From assembly GCF_030013595.1 (NCBI RefSeq), contig NZ_CP122768.1: a DNA stretch of 64,000 nt; one strand, written 5' to 3'. Position numbers and translations under genes: made by a program. This DNA is from Escherichia coli (GTDB taxonomy: Bacteria > Pseudomonadota > Gammaproteobacteria > Enterobacterales > Enterobacteriaceae). This document shows, one piece after another, positions 3,939 to 63,994 of this stretch (position 1 is its first letter; each line of letters begins with the position of its first letter). Below the pieces are notes generated by a model. It ran no database searches. It was not told the DNA's origin and saw only the letters and a program-made list of their open reading frames with translations.

Positions 3939-4283
3939 GCGGCAAAGAGGAATGTGGGGACAGGAGAAAATCAGGTACCGGATATGAACAGCTTTGGTAA
4001 CTCATTGACCGCCAATGGATACCAGAAATTACCTGGGGGGATGATTATTCAATGGGGGAGTTTTTCTGTCTCACCAACCGGAGGAAGTGTTGGAACAGTT
4101 GATATAACATTACCTGTAGCTTTCCCTGCTGCTTGTCGTTCGGTAAACGCTCTTATTTCAACTAATGATCCTTCTGCCCGTTCTGTGGGCTTTGATATTG
4201 GAAGTACCAACAGAACTAAAATCAGATTTACTTACACTTCTGCTACAACAAATTCAATTTACTGGATGGCTGTGGGGTATTAA
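3939..4283 (+). CDS. alternative tail-fibre C-terminal segment (Sv'-like), silent in this orientation
   Basis: In-frame coding begins at the crossover site; followed by a tail-fibre-assembly gene; upstream part of track ORF 3885.. spans the recombination site. Confidence 0.6.
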   Translation, partial: AAKRNVGTGENQVPDMNSFGNSLTANGYQKLPGGMIIQWGSFSVSPTGGSVGTVDITLPVAFPAACRSVNALISTNDPSARSVGFDIGSTNRTKIRFTYTSATTNSIYWMAVGY

Positions 4284-4285
4284 CT

Positions 4286-4717
4286 ATGGAAAAGACATAT
4301 TATTTTAATCCCTCTGATTCGGGATTTTATATTTCACCAGATAGCCAAACCATTCCTGAGAACGCTACGAAAATAAACTTTACTATTTATTCTGAGTTCG
4401 CAGGAGTTGCATGGCCTGATGGTAAAATACTTGGTTCAGATAAAAATGGTTTTCCAGCATGGCAGGATGCGCCACCACTTACCAGCGAAGAATTAATCTC
4501 AATCGCTGAATCAAATAAACAGCGATTAGTTAATCAGGCCAACGAATACATGAACAGTAAACAATGGCCTGGTAAAGCGGCGATTGGTCGTCTGAAAGGT
4601 GAGGAACTGGCGCAATATAATTTGTGGCTGGATTATCTGGACGCACTGGAACTGGTCGATACTTCCAGTGCGCCAGATATTGAATGGCCTACTCCTCCGG
4701 CAGTTCAGGCCAGATGA
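4286..4717 (+). CDS. tail fibre assembly protein (alternative, U'-like)
   Basis: 143 aa; C-terminal [12 protein letters not shown] motif typical of Tfa proteins; inside invertible segment. Confidence 0.75.
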   Translation: MEKTYYFNPSDSGFYISPDSQTIPENATKINFTIYSEFAGVAWPDGKILGSDKNGFPAWQDAPPLTSEELISIAESNKQRLVNQANEYMNSKQWPGKAAIGRLKGEELAQYNLWLDYLDALELVDTSSAPDIEWPTPPAVQAR

Positions 4718-5294
4718 CATCCGGCGCGGTACTGGTATCTGTTGCCGTCACCGCGTCAATGTAATCCAGCACAGTGTTAAGTCGGGTGGTCTCTGCCTGC
4801 ATCAGCTTCCGCCCGGCCTGCAATTTCAGTTGAATCAGACTAATGGAAGCCATTGCAGTATCAATCAGTGACTGACGTTGTGCTTCTGCCGCGTCTACTG
4901 CGGCGCTATGCTGTGTCTCAGTATCCGTTACCCATTTCTCACCATCCCATTTATCGTATGGCGTTAACGGGGCGATAGTGGTTGTTTTTTCGGGGTAATC
5001 ACCCGGAGTTGTGATTTCTTTGGCGTCTCCCGTTTCGGTGTTATAGACGATTTCACCGCGATGGTCTGGTACATATTCCCATGAGTTAAAATCTGCAGAG
5101 CGGCAGATTGCATAACCAGCTTTGTAGGTGCCTGGAGCATCTAAACAGGAATATGCCGGAATGCCGACACCAACAGCAAGATATTCAGTTGAAGCTGAAA
5201 TATACTCCCGACTCATGACGTCAAAGTTATAAACAGTAATTTCTCCTGCCATAGTGGCAATTAATTCACTGTTTAATTCTGCGTTATTCATCAT
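4689..5294 (-). CDS. tail fibre assembly protein (expressed orientation, U-like)
   Basis: 201 aa; C-terminal [15 protein letters not shown]; directly downstream of tail fibre gene. Confidence 0.8.
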
Positions 5295-6076
5295 GCGGCC
5301 CTCACAATATAATTAAAGGCGATGTTACGTGGACGATTTTCATTTGCTGTTGGAACAACATTTGCCGCCGAGAAGTGAACATCTTGTCGGATTTTTCGGT
5401 CATTAGCGTATGTCATAGACACATTGATGTTATTCCGGACTGAGGTACCTCCGTAAAAAGCTCCACTCACACTTTGAACATCGACAATTGCATTAATTTC
5501 GCTGTTTACGCGCAACTGACCAAAACCGCCAGTAATGTTTCGAATAGCATCTCCTTGCGATGAAAGCAGAGTTCGCCCACTATCCACACCACGTTCATCA
5601 TCCCAGCCACGAATAAACTCACCGCGTAAATCAGGCAATTTATTTGTCGGGTAAGACTTTGCCAGTTCCGGGTATTCTTCAGCAGAAAAAGCCGCACCAT
5701 TGCATTTCAGCCAGCCTGTTGGTGGAGTGGCTGAAGGCCACGGAACAGGCACACCAACGGGTAATGCCGAACCTTCTCCCAAACCAAGGTTTTCGAGAGC
5801 TGTTTTCACCGTGCCATCCGATTTGATATCGCCAAACGGATTCTTGCGGCTTAACAGCAGCGCACGAAGCGCGGTAAGCAGCTGGTCATGCCGCCCCTTC
5901 TCCAGGCTGGCACCGGATGCCTCCACAACGCTGCAAAGCTCCTCCTGCAACATGTCAAAGTAGTCATCATCCAGATCGGTGGCAGGCGTGCCGGTCTGGG
6001 GGTTACCACGGGTAAAACCGTTCTTACCCGCGCCGAACTTATCCTTCTGCGCGGTTTTCGTGTCTATACGATGCAT
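5291..6076 (-). CDS. tail fibre protein (constant N-part fused to variable C-part)
   Basis: 261 aa; contains second crossover site about 92 codons in; position after Mu gp48-like gene. Confidence 0.8.
5774..5799. repeat. gix/pix-like inversion crossover site (inside tail fibre gene)
   Basis: TTCTCCCAAACCAAGGTTTTCGAGAG, inverted repeat of 3913..3938. Confidence 0.6.
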
Positions 6077-24246: not shown

Positions 24247-25575
24247 CTGATGAATCCCCTAATGATTTTGGTAAAAATCATTAAGTTAAGGTGGATACAC
24301 ATCTTGTCATATGATCAAATGGTTTCGCGAAAAATCAATAATCAGACAACAAGATGTGCGAACTCGATATTTTACACGACTCTCTTTACCAATTCTGCCC
24401 CGAATTACACTTAAAACGACTCAACAGCTTAACGTTGGCTTGCCACGCATTACTTGACTGTAAAACTCTCACTCTTACCGAACTTGGCCGTAACCTGCCA
24501 ACCAAAGCGAGAACAAAACATAACATCAAACGAATCGACCGATTGTTAGGTAATCGTCACCTCCACAAAGAGCGACTCGCTGTATACCGTTGGCATGCTA
24601 GCTTTATCTGTTCGGGCAATACGATGCCCATTGTACTTGTTGACTGGTCTGATATTCGTGAGCAAAAACGACTTATGGTATTGCGAGCTTCAGTCGCACT
24701 ACACGGTCGTTCTGTTACTCTTTATGAGAAAGCGTTCCCGCTTTCAGAGCAATGTTCAAAGAAAGCTCATGACCAATTTCTAGCCGACCTTGCGAGCATT
24801 CTACCGAGTAACACCACACCGCTCATTGTCAGTGATGCTGGCTTTAAAGTGCCATGGTATAAATCCGTTGAGAAGCTGGGTTGGTACTGGTTAAGTCGAG
24901 TAAGAGGAAAAGTACAATATGCAGACCTAGGAGCGGAAAACTGGAAACCTATCAGCAACTTACATGATATGTCATCTAGTCACTCAAAGACTTTAGGCTA
25001 TAAGAGGCTGACTAAAAGCAATCCAATCTCATGCCAAATTCTATTGTATAAATCTCGCTCTAAAGGCCGAAAAAATCAGCGCTCGACACGGACTCATTGT
25101 CACCACCCGTCACCTAAAATCTACTCAGCGTCGGCAAAGGAGCCATGGGTTCTAGCAACTAACTTACCTGTTGAAATTCGAACACCCAAACAACTTGTTA
25201 ATATCTATTCGAAGCGAATGCAGATTGAAGAAACCTTCCGAGACTTGAAAAGTCCTGCCTACGGACTAGGCCTACGCCATAGCCGAACGAGCAGCTCAGA
25301 GCGTTTTGATATCATGCTGCTAATCGCCCTGATGCTTCAACTAACATGTTGGCTTGCGGGCGTTCATGCTCAGAAACAAGGTTGGGACAAGCACTTCCAG
25401 GCTAACACAGTCAGAAATCGAAACGTACTCTCAACAGTTCGCTTAGGCATGGAAGTTTTGCGGCATTCTGGCTACACAATAACAAGGGAAGACTTACTCG
25501 TGGCTGCAACCCTACTAGCTCAAAATTTATTCACACATGGTTACGCTTTGGGGAAATTATGAGGGGATCTCTCAG
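24247..25575 (+). mobile_element. IS10, complete 1329-bp copy
   Basis: Outside end CTGATGAATCCCCTAATGATTTTGG at 24247, inside end CTGAGAGATCCCCTCA (reverse complement) at 25560-25575; flanks GGTTCAACA and TATTAAGCG differ, so no 9-bp duplication. Confidence 0.95.
24354..25562 (+). CDS. IS10 transposase
   Basis: 402 aa beginning MCELDILHDSLYQFCPELHLKRLNS, matches recalled IS10 transposase over its length. Confidence 0.97.
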   Translation: MCELDILHDSLYQFCPELHLKRLNSLTLACHALLDCKTLTLTELGRNLPTKARTKHNIKRIDRLLGNRHLHKERLAVYRWHASFICSGNTMPIVLVDWSDIREQKRLMVLRASVALHGRSVTLYEKAFPLSEQCSKKAHDQFLADLASILPSNTTPLIVSDAGFKVPWYKSVEKLGWYWLSRVRGKVQYADLGAENWKPISNLHDMSSSHSKTLGYKRLTKSNPISCQILLYKSRSKGRKNQRSTRTHCHHPSPKIYSASAKEPWVLATNLPVEIRTPKQLVNIYSKRMQIEETFRDLKSPAYGLGLRHSRTSSSERFDIMLLIALMLQLTCWLAGVHAQKQGWDKHFQANTVRNRNVLSTVRLGMEVLRHSGYTITREDLLVAATLLAQNLFTHGYALGKL

Positions 25576-61612: not shown

Positions 61613-62011
61613 TTACTCACGAATCAGGCGAGCACTCTTACCATTCATTTCAATACGCGAATACTGCGGTTTACCATCAATGATGTCTGTCATCACGAAC
61701 ATCTCACCCGGCTGCAGTTCAACTACTGCGCCTTCCGGCAATTTCATGCAGGCAAATACCGGACAACCAGGATGACGATCATCTTCTGTTGCTTCCAGCA
61801 TTGACTCACCAAACCACTCCGTCGTGGCGCGACCATCAGCTGCTTTGTAGTGGATCAAGTACTGGTTTTCGCCATCCGCATACTGCGCGCGGGCTTTAAC
61901 CTCACCCCATTCATCACTGATGCGCATCTCCACCAGTTGAGACAACTCAAACTTAAACGGAGCAGCATCAGCACCAATTACAATCGGTTTGCTTTCTGTT
62001 TTTTCCATCAT
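61613..62011 (-). CDS. hypothetical protein between lysis cassette and cos
   Basis: 132-aa ORF, no recognisable motifs. Confidence 0.4.
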   Translation of the reverse strand: MMEKTESKPIVIGADAAPFKFELSQLVEMRISDEWGEVKARAQYADGENQYLIHYKAADGRATTEWFGESMLEATEDDRHPGCPVFACMKLPEGAVVELQPGEMFVMTDIIDGKPQYSRIEMNGKSARLIRE

Positions 62012-62182: not shown

Positions 62183-62359
62183 TCAGTTCTGCAGACACTG
62201 CCGAACACCGTCGACAATTTCACAGACCAGAGAAGCGGTATCGAAAAGCTGGCGCGCTTTATCCAGGCTGACGCATCCCACCAATAAAAAAGGCACCAGT
62301 ATCGCTACCCATTTCGCCGCCGTTCGCGGCATTCTGTGTGTCCAGTGTTTTCGCGTCAT
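62183..62359 (-). CDS. candidate small lipoprotein (58 aa)
   Basis: Hand-translated MTRKHWTHRMPRTAAKWVAILVPFLLVGC...; basic n-region, hydrophobic core, lipobox LVGC; mature 30 aa with 3 Cys; below track cutoff. Confidence 0.35.
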   Translation of the reverse strand: MTRKHWTHRMPRTAAKWVAILVPFLLVGCVSLDKARQLFDTASLVCEIVDGVRQCLQN

Positions 62360-62360
62360 A

Positions 62361-62474
62361 TCACCACCAACGCACAGCCCAAATCAGAACAGCGACCGCC
62401 ACAAGGCGAATTGCAAAGGCCGCAGCCCTTGTCAAATCAAGGCTCGCGGGAGTTTCCACTTCAATACCTTTCAT
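62361..62474 (-). CDS. candidate 37-aa single-pass membrane peptide overlapping the lipoprotein start
   Basis: MKGIEVETPASLDLTRAAAFAIRLVAVAVLIWAVRWW; GAGG 9 nt upstream of ATG; stop sits 1 nt before lipoprotein ATG. Confidence 0.3.
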   Translation of the reverse strand: MKGIEVETPASLDLTRAAAFAIRLVAVAVLIWAVRWW

Positions 62475-62560
62475 AATGGACAACCTCAAAAAGAATCTTT
62501 TATACTTTCCCACGAGGATTTTCTCCGTACTCACTACTCACAATTTCCTCTCTGACGTGA

Positions 62561-62607
62561 AAACTCAAAACCCCGGACTGTTCCAGCAGCCGGGGTTTTG
62601 TTTTTTT
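62561..62607. terminator. strong bidirectional rho-independent terminator
   Basis: CCCCGG..CCGGGG stem flanked by AAACTCAAAA upstream and TTTTGTTTTTTT downstream. Confidence 0.7.
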
Positions 62608-62887
62608 ATTTACTGCCCTGGGTGCGGCATCTGGCTATTTCACCCCTGGCTTTACTGTCACCGCGACAGATACAACGCACCGTGTCTCCGGTCAACGTGG
62701 TAATGTAAGCCTCATCCTCTTTTTCTACCGGAATACATGGAATATCCCCGCCCCGGCAATACTCAATTTTTGCTGCAAGATGAGTGTCACGCGGATAGAA
62801 CTCCAGACGATACATATCTCCCAGGACATGCACTTCCTCAACCTGGCGACCATCCTCAGTTACGGTAATTTTTTTCAGTGCGTACAT
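62606..62887 (-). CDS. small Cys-rich protein of unknown function (93 aa)
   Basis: ATG at 62885-62887 with GGAGG 5 nt upstream; C-terminus has CxxxxC...CxC...C; flanked by terminators. Confidence 0.5.
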   Translation of the reverse strand: MYALKKITVTEDGRQVEEVHVLGDMYRLEFYPRDTHLAAKIEYCRGGDIPCIPVEKEDEAYITTLTGDTVRCICRGDSKARGEIARCRTQGSK

Positions 62888-62915
62888 ACGTACCTCCGTT
62901 CTTTCGTTTTTTGAG

Positions 62916-62942
62916 CAATAAAAAAGCCGCTCATGGCGGCCC
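62916..62942 (-). terminator. rho-independent terminator after endolysin gene
   Basis: GCCGC-loop-GCGGC hairpin followed on minus strand by six U. Confidence 0.55.
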
Positions 62943-62957
62943 TGTATGTTTTGCAAG

Positions 62958-63341
62958 CTATCGCTTCAATTGAAAATGAGGCCCGTCTTTCAGTGTTTTC
63001 CAGTCCCCGCCCCATTCGATGGCAGTTCCCAGCTCTGCGGCAGCCTGCTTAAATGCCTGCGCGATTTTCTCGTACAGAGGCCAGTCCCATGACACCTGGC
63101 TGCCAACCCAGGCCACAACATCCACCGCATCACCGGTCAGGTGGCGGCTGTTCATGGTCTGGCTCTTACCTTCTGCAACCAGCTGTTTCTGGCGTTCTTT
63201 CGTGCGCAGGCCCTCCGTAATACCGAAATCAACCTCCGACAGTTCAAGGGCGCGGCGAACTACAGCAACCAGCTGTGGTTTGACGCCTTCCAGATTTTTC
63301 TCGCTCCGGCGGCTGAATCTGAATTTACCCGACATATTCAC
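62958..63341 (-). CDS. endolysin, peptidase M15 family
   Basis: 127 aa with zinc-binding pattern SRHLTGDAVD ... DGPHFQL. Confidence 0.8.
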   Translation of the reverse strand: MNMSGKFRFSRRSEKNLEGVKPQLVAVVRRALELSEVDFGITEGLRTKERQKQLVAEGKSQTMNSRHLTGDAVDVVAWVGSQVSWDWPLYEKIAQAFKQAAAELGTAIEWGGDWKTLKDGPHFQLKR

Positions 63342-63574
63342 CTCAACAATGGAAAGATTCTTGTGACGTTCCCGCGTGCGCGTATCACCAGCACGCAGAA
63401 CAGCAGATTAAAAAACACATCCAGCCAGCCCGTTGCTAACGGGCGACCACACAGATAGCTGAGAGGCGAAAAGGCATACAGCAGCGTCAGCAGCCAGGCC
63501 AGCCATGACATCAGCGGTTTATGCCTGGAATCGCGACGACGATAAAAAAGAGCGTCAGCACGATAACCGTGCAT
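63338..63574 (-). CDS. small membrane protein of lysis cassette (possible holin/antiholin)
   Basis: 78-aa track ORF with hydrophobic segments; 4-nt overlap with endolysin start. Confidence 0.4.
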   Translation of the reverse strand: MHGYRADALFYRRRDSRHKPLMSWLAWLLTLLYAFSPLSYLCGRPLATGWLDVFFNLLFCVLVIRARGNVTRIFPLLR

Positions 63575-63601: not shown

Positions 63602-63994
63602 TTACTTAACATTACCGCCTCCTCCGCCTCGCAGGCGGGAGAACCGTCCTGACACCAGCGATGCGATATCCTGCTGGTGGATGAACGACAGAATCTTCAC
63701 CGACACCACAGACACCAGCACTGCACACAGCGCGTCGACAGATTTACTGTGAAGCCCCAGTTTTTCGACCAGATAAGACGCCATCACATCCGCCCCCAGT
63801 ACGCCGATAATAAACGACACCAGAAAATGCGCCGCCACCCGCCAGACAGAAAGCGCCTGCGGCATCGTTGCCACAAACAACGCCCCCGCGAACGCACCAA
63901 ACACAATCCCGAAATCCGTTCCGGTGAACAGCCCGAATACCGTCGCCCCTCCGAGCGCAGCCGCCGTGCCGGAACCGGATAAGGGTTCAGACAT
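63602..63994 (-). CDS. putative holin-like multi-TM membrane protein
   Basis: 130 aa, Gly/Ala-rich hydrophobic helices; heads the lysis cassette. Confidence 0.45.
   Translation of the reverse strand: MSEPLSGSGTAAALGGATVFGLFTGTDFGIVFGAFAGALFVATMPQALSVWRVAAHFLVSFIIGVLGADVMASYLVEKLGLHSKSVDALCAVLVSVVSVKILSFIHQQDIASLVSGRFSRLRGGGGGNVK

Follow-up and report, generated by a model that had tools for sequence, protein, structure and literature searches.

The positions just before the holin gene and just after the endolysin gene are classical cargo slots of lambdoid late operons, as in Shiga toxin (Stx) phages and for bor of phage lambda. In phages of Gram-negative bacteria, spanin genes (Rz/Rz1 or a unimolecular spanin) are expected after the endolysin. 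Two further systems are relevant here: the moron of lambdoid phages, a concept of Hendrix and Juhala (definition as quoted in PMC2629481), and the stx and lysis genes of lambdoid and Stx phages, whose dependence on Q is established (PMC8065619). Here, we analysed a gene for a 93-amino-acid (aa) protein that directly follows an endolysin gene in a 64,000-nucleotide (nt) stretch of Escherichia coli DNA (contig NZ_CP122768.1; hereafter, the window). The prophage that carries it is mosaic in structure and related to phiP27, an Stx2e phage, and to phiSTEC1575, an Stx2k phage. Our results suggest, with a probability that we place at roughly 0.6, that this gene is a promoterless accessory cassette consisting of an upstream terminator (T1), an A-rich spacer with a Shine-Dalgarno (SD) sequence, the open reading frame (ORF) and a downstream terminator (T2), and that the cassette is Q-dependent, expressed late and dispensable for lysis.

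All coordinates given below are those of the window unless a locus is named, and the 93-aa gene and the lysis genes are read on the minus strand. In the 5' to 3' direction of that strand, the order is holin, holin, endolysin, T1, spacer with SD, 93-aa ORF and T2. T1 (62917–62943, minus strand) was identified by a terminator scan and by folding, and comprises a hairpin at 62943–62923 and a U-run. The SD sequence GGAGG (62893–62897, minus strand), preceded by the A-rich spacer, can be read directly from the sequence and lies five bases 5' of the ATG at 62887. The ORF itself (62606–62887, minus strand; MYALKK...QGSK) was taken from the ORF list and corresponds to PHROG 33497 and to the RefSeq coding sequence WP_063082226.1, which encodes the same 93 aa. 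T2 (62556–62600, both strands) is a strong bidirectional terminator hairpin (~62566–62600) directly past the stop codon. An earlier sequence-only reading of this DNA had described a terminator 3' of the endolysin, a strong ribosome-binding site, the 93-aa ORF and a strong bidirectional terminator, and we found all of these features where it had placed them. Its view that the gene is bracketed by terminators agrees with the scan, the folds and the copies across loci. Overall, the terminator scan counted eight terminator-like sites in 2.7 kb versus 2.6 ± 1.5 in shuffled sequences.

We compared the gene across 80 loci from IMG/VR and additional loci from assemblies, onto which reference lysis and packaging proteins were mapped. 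Using a strict scan, a hairpin ending 12–70 nt 5' of the ATG was detected in 87 of the 90 copies and in 45 of the 47 distinct upstream contexts, compared with a background density of 0.71 terminator-like sites per kb in the same loci. These contexts are diverse and include an M15 endolysin, a GH108 endolysin, Q, a 388-aa gene, a Tad2-like gene and a tandem paralogue. When 140-nt leaders from different contexts were compared, homology started at the hairpin and U-run and extended through the A-rich spacer and the SD sequence to the ATG, and the sequences 5' of the hairpin were unrelated. The hairpin and U-run were found in all 42 distinct leaders.

T1 has the form of an intrinsic terminator, a GC-rich stem-loop immediately followed by a U-run, with the consensus AAGGTCGC-TTCG-GCGGCC-TTTTTTATT. 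Its stem occurs as GGTCGC/GCGGCC, GGTCAC/GTGGCC, CCTCGC/GCGGGG and GATCGC/GCGGTC. When 32 distinct hairpins were aligned, the 6-bp stem was paired in 94.3% of the cells, compared with at most 56% for slid registers, and three of the six pairs presented changes on both sides (GC to CG and GC to AU; 22 cells). The covariation score reached 0.389 versus 0.165 ± 0.024 in shuffles (0 of 500 as high). Such compensatory changes indicate that the hairpin is under selection. No hairpin was found after the endolysin of phiP27, which is 92% identical to that of the window and is not followed by the 93-aa gene. Because T1 recurs in nearly all contexts, covaries and is absent from phiP27, we assign it to the gene: the hairpin located after the endolysin is part of the 93-aa gene's cassette. 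The sequence-only reading had correctly placed a hairpin there but had treated it as a terminator following the endolysin.

Two loci illustrate how the cassette is joined to other sequences. Tandem paralogues of 81 and 100 aa were observed in Enterobacter hormaechei (locus L091, 2426–3055), each behind its own terminator hairpin, and the terminator in the middle serves both as the T2 of the first copy and as the T1 of the second. A recombination joint was found in locus L023 (3860–4000), where the 5' part of a lipoprotein gene, which encodes the signal peptide, continues directly into the 3' half of T1, the junction being within the string CCTTTTTTATTG that both share. The lipoprotein is truncated by this event, and the hairpin and U-run in front of the 93-aa gene are retained. 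The form of this joint suggests that U-run sequences may act as recombination joints.

At the other end of the cassette, the fold of T2 has a predicted energy of -26.5 kcal/mol (z = -4.2), which none of 200 shuffles equalled, and a U-run is present on each strand. A terminator lies within 60 nt past the stop codon in at least 51 of the 90 copies, which is a lower bound since the strict perfect-stem scan overlooks bulged stems such as that of T2. We then searched for promoters. Scans of the gene's strand in the window and in three distant contexts detected no sigma-70 consensus promoter in the interval from T1 to the ATG or just upstream of it. The distance from the U-run to the ATG is only ~25–35 nt and, because of this, there is no room for a promoter in the leader. 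The U-run together with TATTAT or TATTGC was considered as a hidden promoter, but this candidate was rejected: it lacks an acceptable -35 element, the available space is too short, and the scans were negative.

The terminator-first layout is not restricted to the 93-aa gene. We searched all loci for a terminator followed by an SD sequence within 65 nt and an ORF. This recovered the 93-aa gene in 92 instances, the first holin gene in 31 (15 contexts) and stxA in four, as well as a second holin type and a 44-aa ORF of Proteus (12 instances, six contexts). Since holin genes and stxA are recovered, the 93-aa gene shares its layout with genes that are silent until Q antitermination. The 44-aa ORF (MKNLFINLC...) lies just before the holin gene in Proteus prophages (L004–L006, ~5250–5420; L061, ~5650–5800). 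Its upstream terminator reads GGTCAC-TTCG-GTGGCC-TTTTTTATT-GGAG, and it is apparently a further cassette of the terminator-first kind.

The 93-aa ORF is a real gene that encodes a protein under selection, as indicated by its PHROG match, its relatives, its invariant N-terminus and its substitution pattern. It matches PHROG 33497 (function unknown) over its full length (E 2.2e-55; residues 1–93 versus profile positions 1–95 of 95). Among 5.8 billion proteins, we identified 51 relatives with a single-sequence search and 85 clusters with a profile search. They are 77–107 aa long, all annotated as hypothetical and all from Enterobacterales (Escherichia, Salmonella, Edwardsiella, Hafnia, Enterobacter, Kluyvera, Proteus, Providencia and Xenorhabdus). 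A homologue from Plesiomonas is present in AFDB50, and HMMER, run exhaustively over 1.84 billion cluster representatives, yielded only 17 matches. All homologues share the motif MYALK, unchanged, at the ATG. In an alignment of 37 sequences, the invariant positions are M1, Y2, A3, L4, K5, E17, G23 and E29, and the blocks GR-VEE, LG-MYRLE and AYITT-TGDTVR--(C/S)RG are nearly invariant. The median pairwise ratio of nonsynonymous to synonymous substitution rates (dN/dS) is 0.12 (464 pairs from 56 distinct coding sequences), which indicates purifying selection, and the frame is conserved across homologues, with length differences that preserve it. The SD sequence (GGAGG, AAGGA or GAGGA) is kept in position in each of the 42 distinct leaders. 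Synonymous changes are spread along the entire ORF and only codons 2–3 are fixed, a pattern that is typical of the translation initiation region. An overlapping RNA-level constraint on the ORF was rejected because synonymous-site conservation is limited to these two codons.

These data also settle the start codon. The sequence-only reading had raised the alternative of a TTG (62954–62956, minus strand) located 23 codons upstream beside the endolysin stop, which would yield a 116-aa ORF. We reject this extension, which would span T1 and shows no conservation from one context to another, the sequences 5' of the ATG being unrelated. Because MYALK is invariant at the ATG at 62887, which is also the choice of RefSeq, this is the correct start. 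A few copies (L052–L054 and L062) seem to carry frameshifts or truncations, either close to the 5' end or past approximately residue 60–72, and these are probably decaying alleles in some prophages.

The product is predicted to be a soluble, all-beta protein of ~10 kDa with no recognisable fold relative. The AlphaFold2 model built with the family alignment (predicted local distance difference test score 88.4; predicted template modelling score 0.70) presents seven beta-strands in a meander (residues 4–74) and a basic helix (residues 78–90), which falls in a C-terminal region missing from most of the shorter relatives. The calculated isoelectric point is 5.0 for the core and 10.1 for the tail. 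No membrane segment was detected: the highest Kyte-Doolittle 19-residue mean is 0.33, compared with ~2.05–2.09 in neighbouring membrane proteins, and it exceeds 1.0 in none of the family members. No lipobox is visible in the 93-aa sequence either, in line with the earlier statement that the protein is not a spanin. Profile and structure searches, which the sequence-only reading had recommended, returned PHROG 33497 and little else. Pfam gave nothing for the protein or the 37 aligned members (best match PDDEXK_14 at E 0.11), NCBIfam and PADLOC gave no match to the 93-aa protein, and Foldseek retrieved only a family member from AFDB50 and nothing from BFVD at E ≤ 0.001. The literature on Stx2k phages and on KhtT contained nothing specific to the 93-aa gene. 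Two apparent similarities were rejected. A profile search of the PDB matched polyubiquitin chains (E 1e-14), but no stretch passed alone, and the score climbs by ~6 bits per ubiquitin repeat (di-ubiquitin E ~0.04), which identifies it as a repeat-summing artefact. Similarly, the 1365-aa protein P0055 contains a repeated 'EYCEGADIPALP' motif resembling EYCRGGDIPCIP, a short compositional match rather than homology.

We then examined where the gene is found. phiP27 shares the holin–holin–endolysin block with the window up to the endolysin stop, and homology resumes at the lipoprotein gene; the intervening 0.5–0.6 kb is different and carries other ORFs. In other E. coli prophages, the slot past the same endolysin is empty (ETEC4069) or occupied by a 60-aa ORF (DH5alpha). 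The comparison of this slot across related prophages, also recommended earlier, revealed variable content. Using a combined query of endolysin and gene, an M15-like endolysin sequence was found in 829 of 5426 complete E. coli genomes, with the 93-aa gene adjoining in 55. The gene is present in 108 of these 5426 genomes (~2%), and the best-matching carriers are largely porcine isolates of enterotoxigenic or Shiga toxin-producing E. coli. Among 50,697 deposited phage genomes, it was present in a single one. Other carriers are Stx2k phages and prophages of Proteus, Providencia, Xenorhabdus, Edwardsiella and Enterobacter.

The position of the gene relative to the lysis genes differs among hosts. 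It lies directly past an M15 or GH108 endolysin in E. coli, Salmonella and Edwardsiella. Two loci, L014 and L015, have it between an M15 endolysin and a homologue of Rz. Prophages of Proteus, Providencia, Xenorhabdus, Enterobacter cancerogenus and Kluyvera carry it between Q and the holin gene, often directly before the latter. The adjacent holins belong to Pfam Phage_holin_8/3_7, 3_3, 3_1 and 2_1 and to PHROG 198/217, and the endolysins are of the M15, GH108 and GH24 lysozyme types. Because these come from several unrelated families, the gene has no constant lysis partner. In the near-identical prophage of ETEC1732, the Q gene is located ~4.8 kb upstream on the same strand. Together with the Q-to-holin placement elsewhere, this position assigns the gene, as judged from gene order, to the Q-dependent late operon. 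It further appears to be optional cargo that is dispensable for lysis by the holin–holin–M15 cassette, because it is missing from phiP27 and from many E. coli prophages that have this cassette. We found no compositional signature of foreign origin, with a GC content of 0.49 in the gene and 0.48–0.58 in its neighbours.

Based on these observations, we propose the following scheme, in which the 93-aa protein is probably made only once the late genes of the phage are switched on. In the lysogen, or with RNA polymerase not modified by Q, transcripts from upstream would halt at T1 and the gene would remain silent. Upon induction, the Q-modified, terminator-resistant polymerase coming from the late promoter would read through T1, the ORF and T2. 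Owing to the strong SD sequence, a burst of a soluble ~10 kDa protein would follow alongside holin, endolysin and, in some relatives, Stx. The most likely function of the protein is that of an optional cytoplasmic accessory factor that acts late, an assignment that we make with low confidence. Candidate roles are, in descending order of preference, countering the response of the host or of a competing element to late phage proteins, modulating the cell before lysis, and release at lysis. With regard to the first role, a Tad2-like gene shares the slot in Xenorhabdus. In these prophages (L007, 3773–4558; L068), a Tad2-like gene (PF11195, plus DUF7823) lies directly upstream of the 93-aa homologue, so that the Q-to-holin slot may also hold a candidate anti-defence gene.

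Several other explanations were weighed against this evidence. The sequence-only reading had suggested a small metal-binding domain based on a CxxxxC...CxC...C pattern in the C-terminus. The protein is indeed Cys-rich and presents the CxC...C part, but the first spacing is Cx6C rather than CxxxxC (C44, C51, C72, C74 and C87). A zinc-ribbon-like protein in which the ligands of Cx6C...CxC...C are essential would be consistent with the E. coli/Salmonella clade, where the window protein and all relatives of at least 82% identity stably keep the five cysteines and where the codon of C51 varies synonymously between TGC and TGT, which indicates that Cys is maintained. However, this set is restricted to that clade. 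There is no conserved Cys column among the 37 aligned homologues, and the alignment does not contain four Cys/His ligands kept across homologues as in a zinc ribbon or knuckle. Members below ~75% identity (45–74%) have zero to three cysteines, with none in P0040 and P0047; C74, the sole widespread Cys, is Ser in many members, including those of Proteus and Providencia; and C87 sits in a tail that is absent from most members. No match to a zinc ribbon or any other known metal-binding family was obtained in Pfam (E ≤ 0.001 for the protein and all 37 members) or NCBIfam, and the predicted beta-meander is neither a knuckle nor a ribbon. A metal-binding domain across the family is not supported and we regard this explanation as very unlikely, but a lineage-specific metal or redox site may exist in the E. 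coli clade. The genomic position of the gene raises the separate idea of a lysis accessory, either a cytoplasmic regulator of holin or endolysin timing or a stand-in for a missing spanin function. Indeed, wherever lysis genes are recognisable, the gene is immediately before the holin or after the endolysin (between endolysin and Rz homologue in L014 and L015), and its co-transcription with the lysis genes is expected. This reading is nonetheless unlikely given that the holins and endolysins beside the gene are unrelated, that the same holin–holin–M15 cassette does without it in phiP27 and many prophages, and that both positions are the cargo slots described above. The protein also has no membrane segment or lipobox and matches no lysis family in PHROG, Pfam, NCBIfam or PADLOC.

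It is also conceivable that the gene is a classical moron or lysogenic-conversion gene, transcribed from its own promoter in the lysogen, with T2 blocking read-through into the downstream late genes. Its variable presence in related prophages at a fixed junction, its downstream terminator and its animal-associated or pathogenic enterobacterial hosts would all be expected in this case. We consider it distinctly unlikely since the promoter scans were negative on the gene's strand in the window and in three distant contexts, the conservation of the cassette begins at the hairpin with unrelated sequence 5' of it and a short stretch to the ATG, and the base composition does not deviate from that of the neighbours. 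Finally, the strong hairpins at both ends of a short gene without database annotation might indicate an RNA lying between two hairpins, or a frame that is open by chance. This is hardly credible for an ORF with the dN/dS given above, synonymous changes throughout, frame-preserving length differences and an invariant start and SD sequence, and Rfam matched nothing over T1, the leader or the ORF.

Some observations weigh against the promoterless, Q-dependent cassette that we favour. Termination at T1 and its override by Q are deduced from the form of the sequence and from the likeness to lambda tR' and to Stx phages. The promoter scan was a simple consensus search that would miss weak, extended -10 or alternative-sigma promoters. 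In three copies the stem of T1 is imperfect, in what is otherwise the same element. The gene is constantly next to lysis genes, of at least six holin/endolysin types, which could mean that it has a role linked to lysis and not simply that the slot is permissive. Lastly, five cysteines are strictly retained in the E. coli clade, with synonymous variation, and may form a lineage-specific metal or redox site there. On the other hand, the anatomy of the cassette, its mobility between slots, the covariation of T1, purifying selection and the lack of Cys conservation were all observed here. The same observations would also fit a bolder scenario, which we advance tentatively as a minor possibility. 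The protein would be an effector with a new fold, silenced by T1 in the lysogen and produced in a Q-dependent burst, with the regulatory logic of Shiga toxin and, in many hosts, also its slot. It would act late, either as an anti-defence factor against host systems that sense late phage proteins or after release at lysis. Terminator-first cassettes would then form a recurrent, shufflable grammar at the 5' end of lambdoid late operons, recombining at the hairpin and TTTTTTATT as in L023, and would include the 93-aa gene, the 44-aa Proteus ORF, stx and the first holin gene.

The lysis genes and the downstream neighbours of the cassette complete the picture of the locus. The lysis cassette opens with two holin genes (minus strand), whose ORFs encode 78 aa (63338–63574) and 130 aa (63602–63994), assigned by RefSeq and by PHROG 217 and PHROG 198 'holin' (E 2e-42 for the first gene in the direction of reading, at 63602–63994, and 1e-29 for the second). 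They are followed by the endolysin gene (62958–63341, minus strand), of the M15 family (L-alanyl-D-glutamate peptidase type; PHROG 465 'endolysin', E 1e-75; RefSeq 'M15 family metallopeptidase'). An Rz/Rz1 spanin pair is not found after the endolysin of the window. Instead, 62183–62534 encodes on the minus strand a small protein with a C-terminal membrane segment (62361–62534, or from a shorter start) and a 58-aa lipoprotein with an LLVGC lipobox (62183–62359). The two correspond to the pair PHROG 4493 and PHROG 7528, of unknown function, with hydropathy maxima of ~2.05 and 2.08. This pair accompanies the 93-aa gene in most E. coli loci, and an Rz homologue takes its place in L014 and L015. 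Depending on the start, the small membrane protein has 37–57 aa; the motif KYKRxxxRL upstream of the RefSeq ATG is conserved in L039 and L043, which suggests that the ORF is longer than annotated. The lipoprotein has three cysteines in its mature part. Between the lipoprotein and small terminase genes lies a 132-aa ORF (61613–62011, minus strand; PHROG 1935, unknown function), which has no family annotation and is conserved in phiP27 (L33) and most E. coli loci.

We made several additional observations in and around this region. On the plus strand of the window (62477–62607), a promoter-like sequence, TGGACA-18-TATACT (10 of 12 matches), is oriented towards T2, which it enters from the reverse side. 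It would produce a predicted RNA of ~95 nt, antisense to the leader or 5' coding part of the small membrane-protein gene. Sub-threshold Rfam matches at this site (sar RNA, 23.8 bits; rnk leader, 27.1 bits; E ~0.1) are probably driven by the hairpin. This arrangement could resemble a type I toxin system or be due to chance. In phiP27 (L001, 3987–4712), L32 (51 aa) and a lipoprotein ORF of 62 aa (4524–4712) are in different frames, and the latter is homologous to the lipoprotein of the window. The same slot contains an unannotated 90-aa helical ORF on the opposite strand (4183–4455) and a 43-aa ORF with a GGAGG site past the endolysin, and the phiP27 record seems to be mis-annotated there. Elsewhere in the window, an IS10-type element was found at 24292–25562, with a match to RNA-OUT (98.8 bits; 24292–24361, minus strand) that overlaps the start of a 402-aa ORF of transposase size (24354–25562, plus strand).

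The significance of these results is modest. They remove a tempting annotation as a metal-binding protein or lysis accessory and fix the start codon. They also show that a hairpin resembling the terminator of the endolysin belongs to a mobile accessory cassette, in which it is conserved and covaries. Furthermore, they suggest a rule for reading lambdoid late regions, namely that cargo silent in the lysogen, such as the holin, Stx and 93-aa genes, is fronted by a terminator and not by a promoter. Should the protein turn out to act late in anti-defence, or as an effector set free by lysis, it would represent a new family with a new fold that is easily testable.

Relative to known systems, part of this picture is not new: the family is catalogued as an unnamed PHROG or as hypothetical proteins, and optional cargo in moron slots flanking the lysis cassette is already known. 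The full-length match to PHROG 33497 is uninformative on function, since that family is unannotated. The 93-aa gene occupies the same place as a spanin gene, directly after the endolysin, but its product lacks the N-terminal membrane segment, lipobox and periplasmic coiled coil of spanins. It also has no homology to Rz, to Pfam Phage_lysis or to a spanin PHROG, its sole match being PHROG 33497, and a canonical Rz is additionally present in many loci. The likeness to morons is closer. The gene is variably present at one junction of a conserved operon, between the endolysin stop and the lipoprotein gene, where the content of the slot is in flux, and it is followed by a factor-independent terminator (T2 in the window). 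A classical moron, however, is usually expressed from its own promoter, which our consensus scans did not find, and the nucleotide composition of the 93-aa gene is like that of its neighbours. The difference from the textbook moron is a conserved 5' boundary formed by a terminator, with no promoter found. The gene also resembles stx. The protein differs from Stx in being encoded by a single small ORF, with no signal peptide or similarity to toxin families, and in E. coli its gene lies past the endolysin rather than ahead of the holin. Nevertheless, the Q-to-holin slot that it occupies in Proteus, Xenorhabdus, Enterobacter and Kluyvera is the position of stx (as in phiP27), a terminator lies directly upstream of it as for stxA in q93-bearing loci, and some of its carriers, such as phiSTEC1575-Stx2k, are themselves Stx phages.

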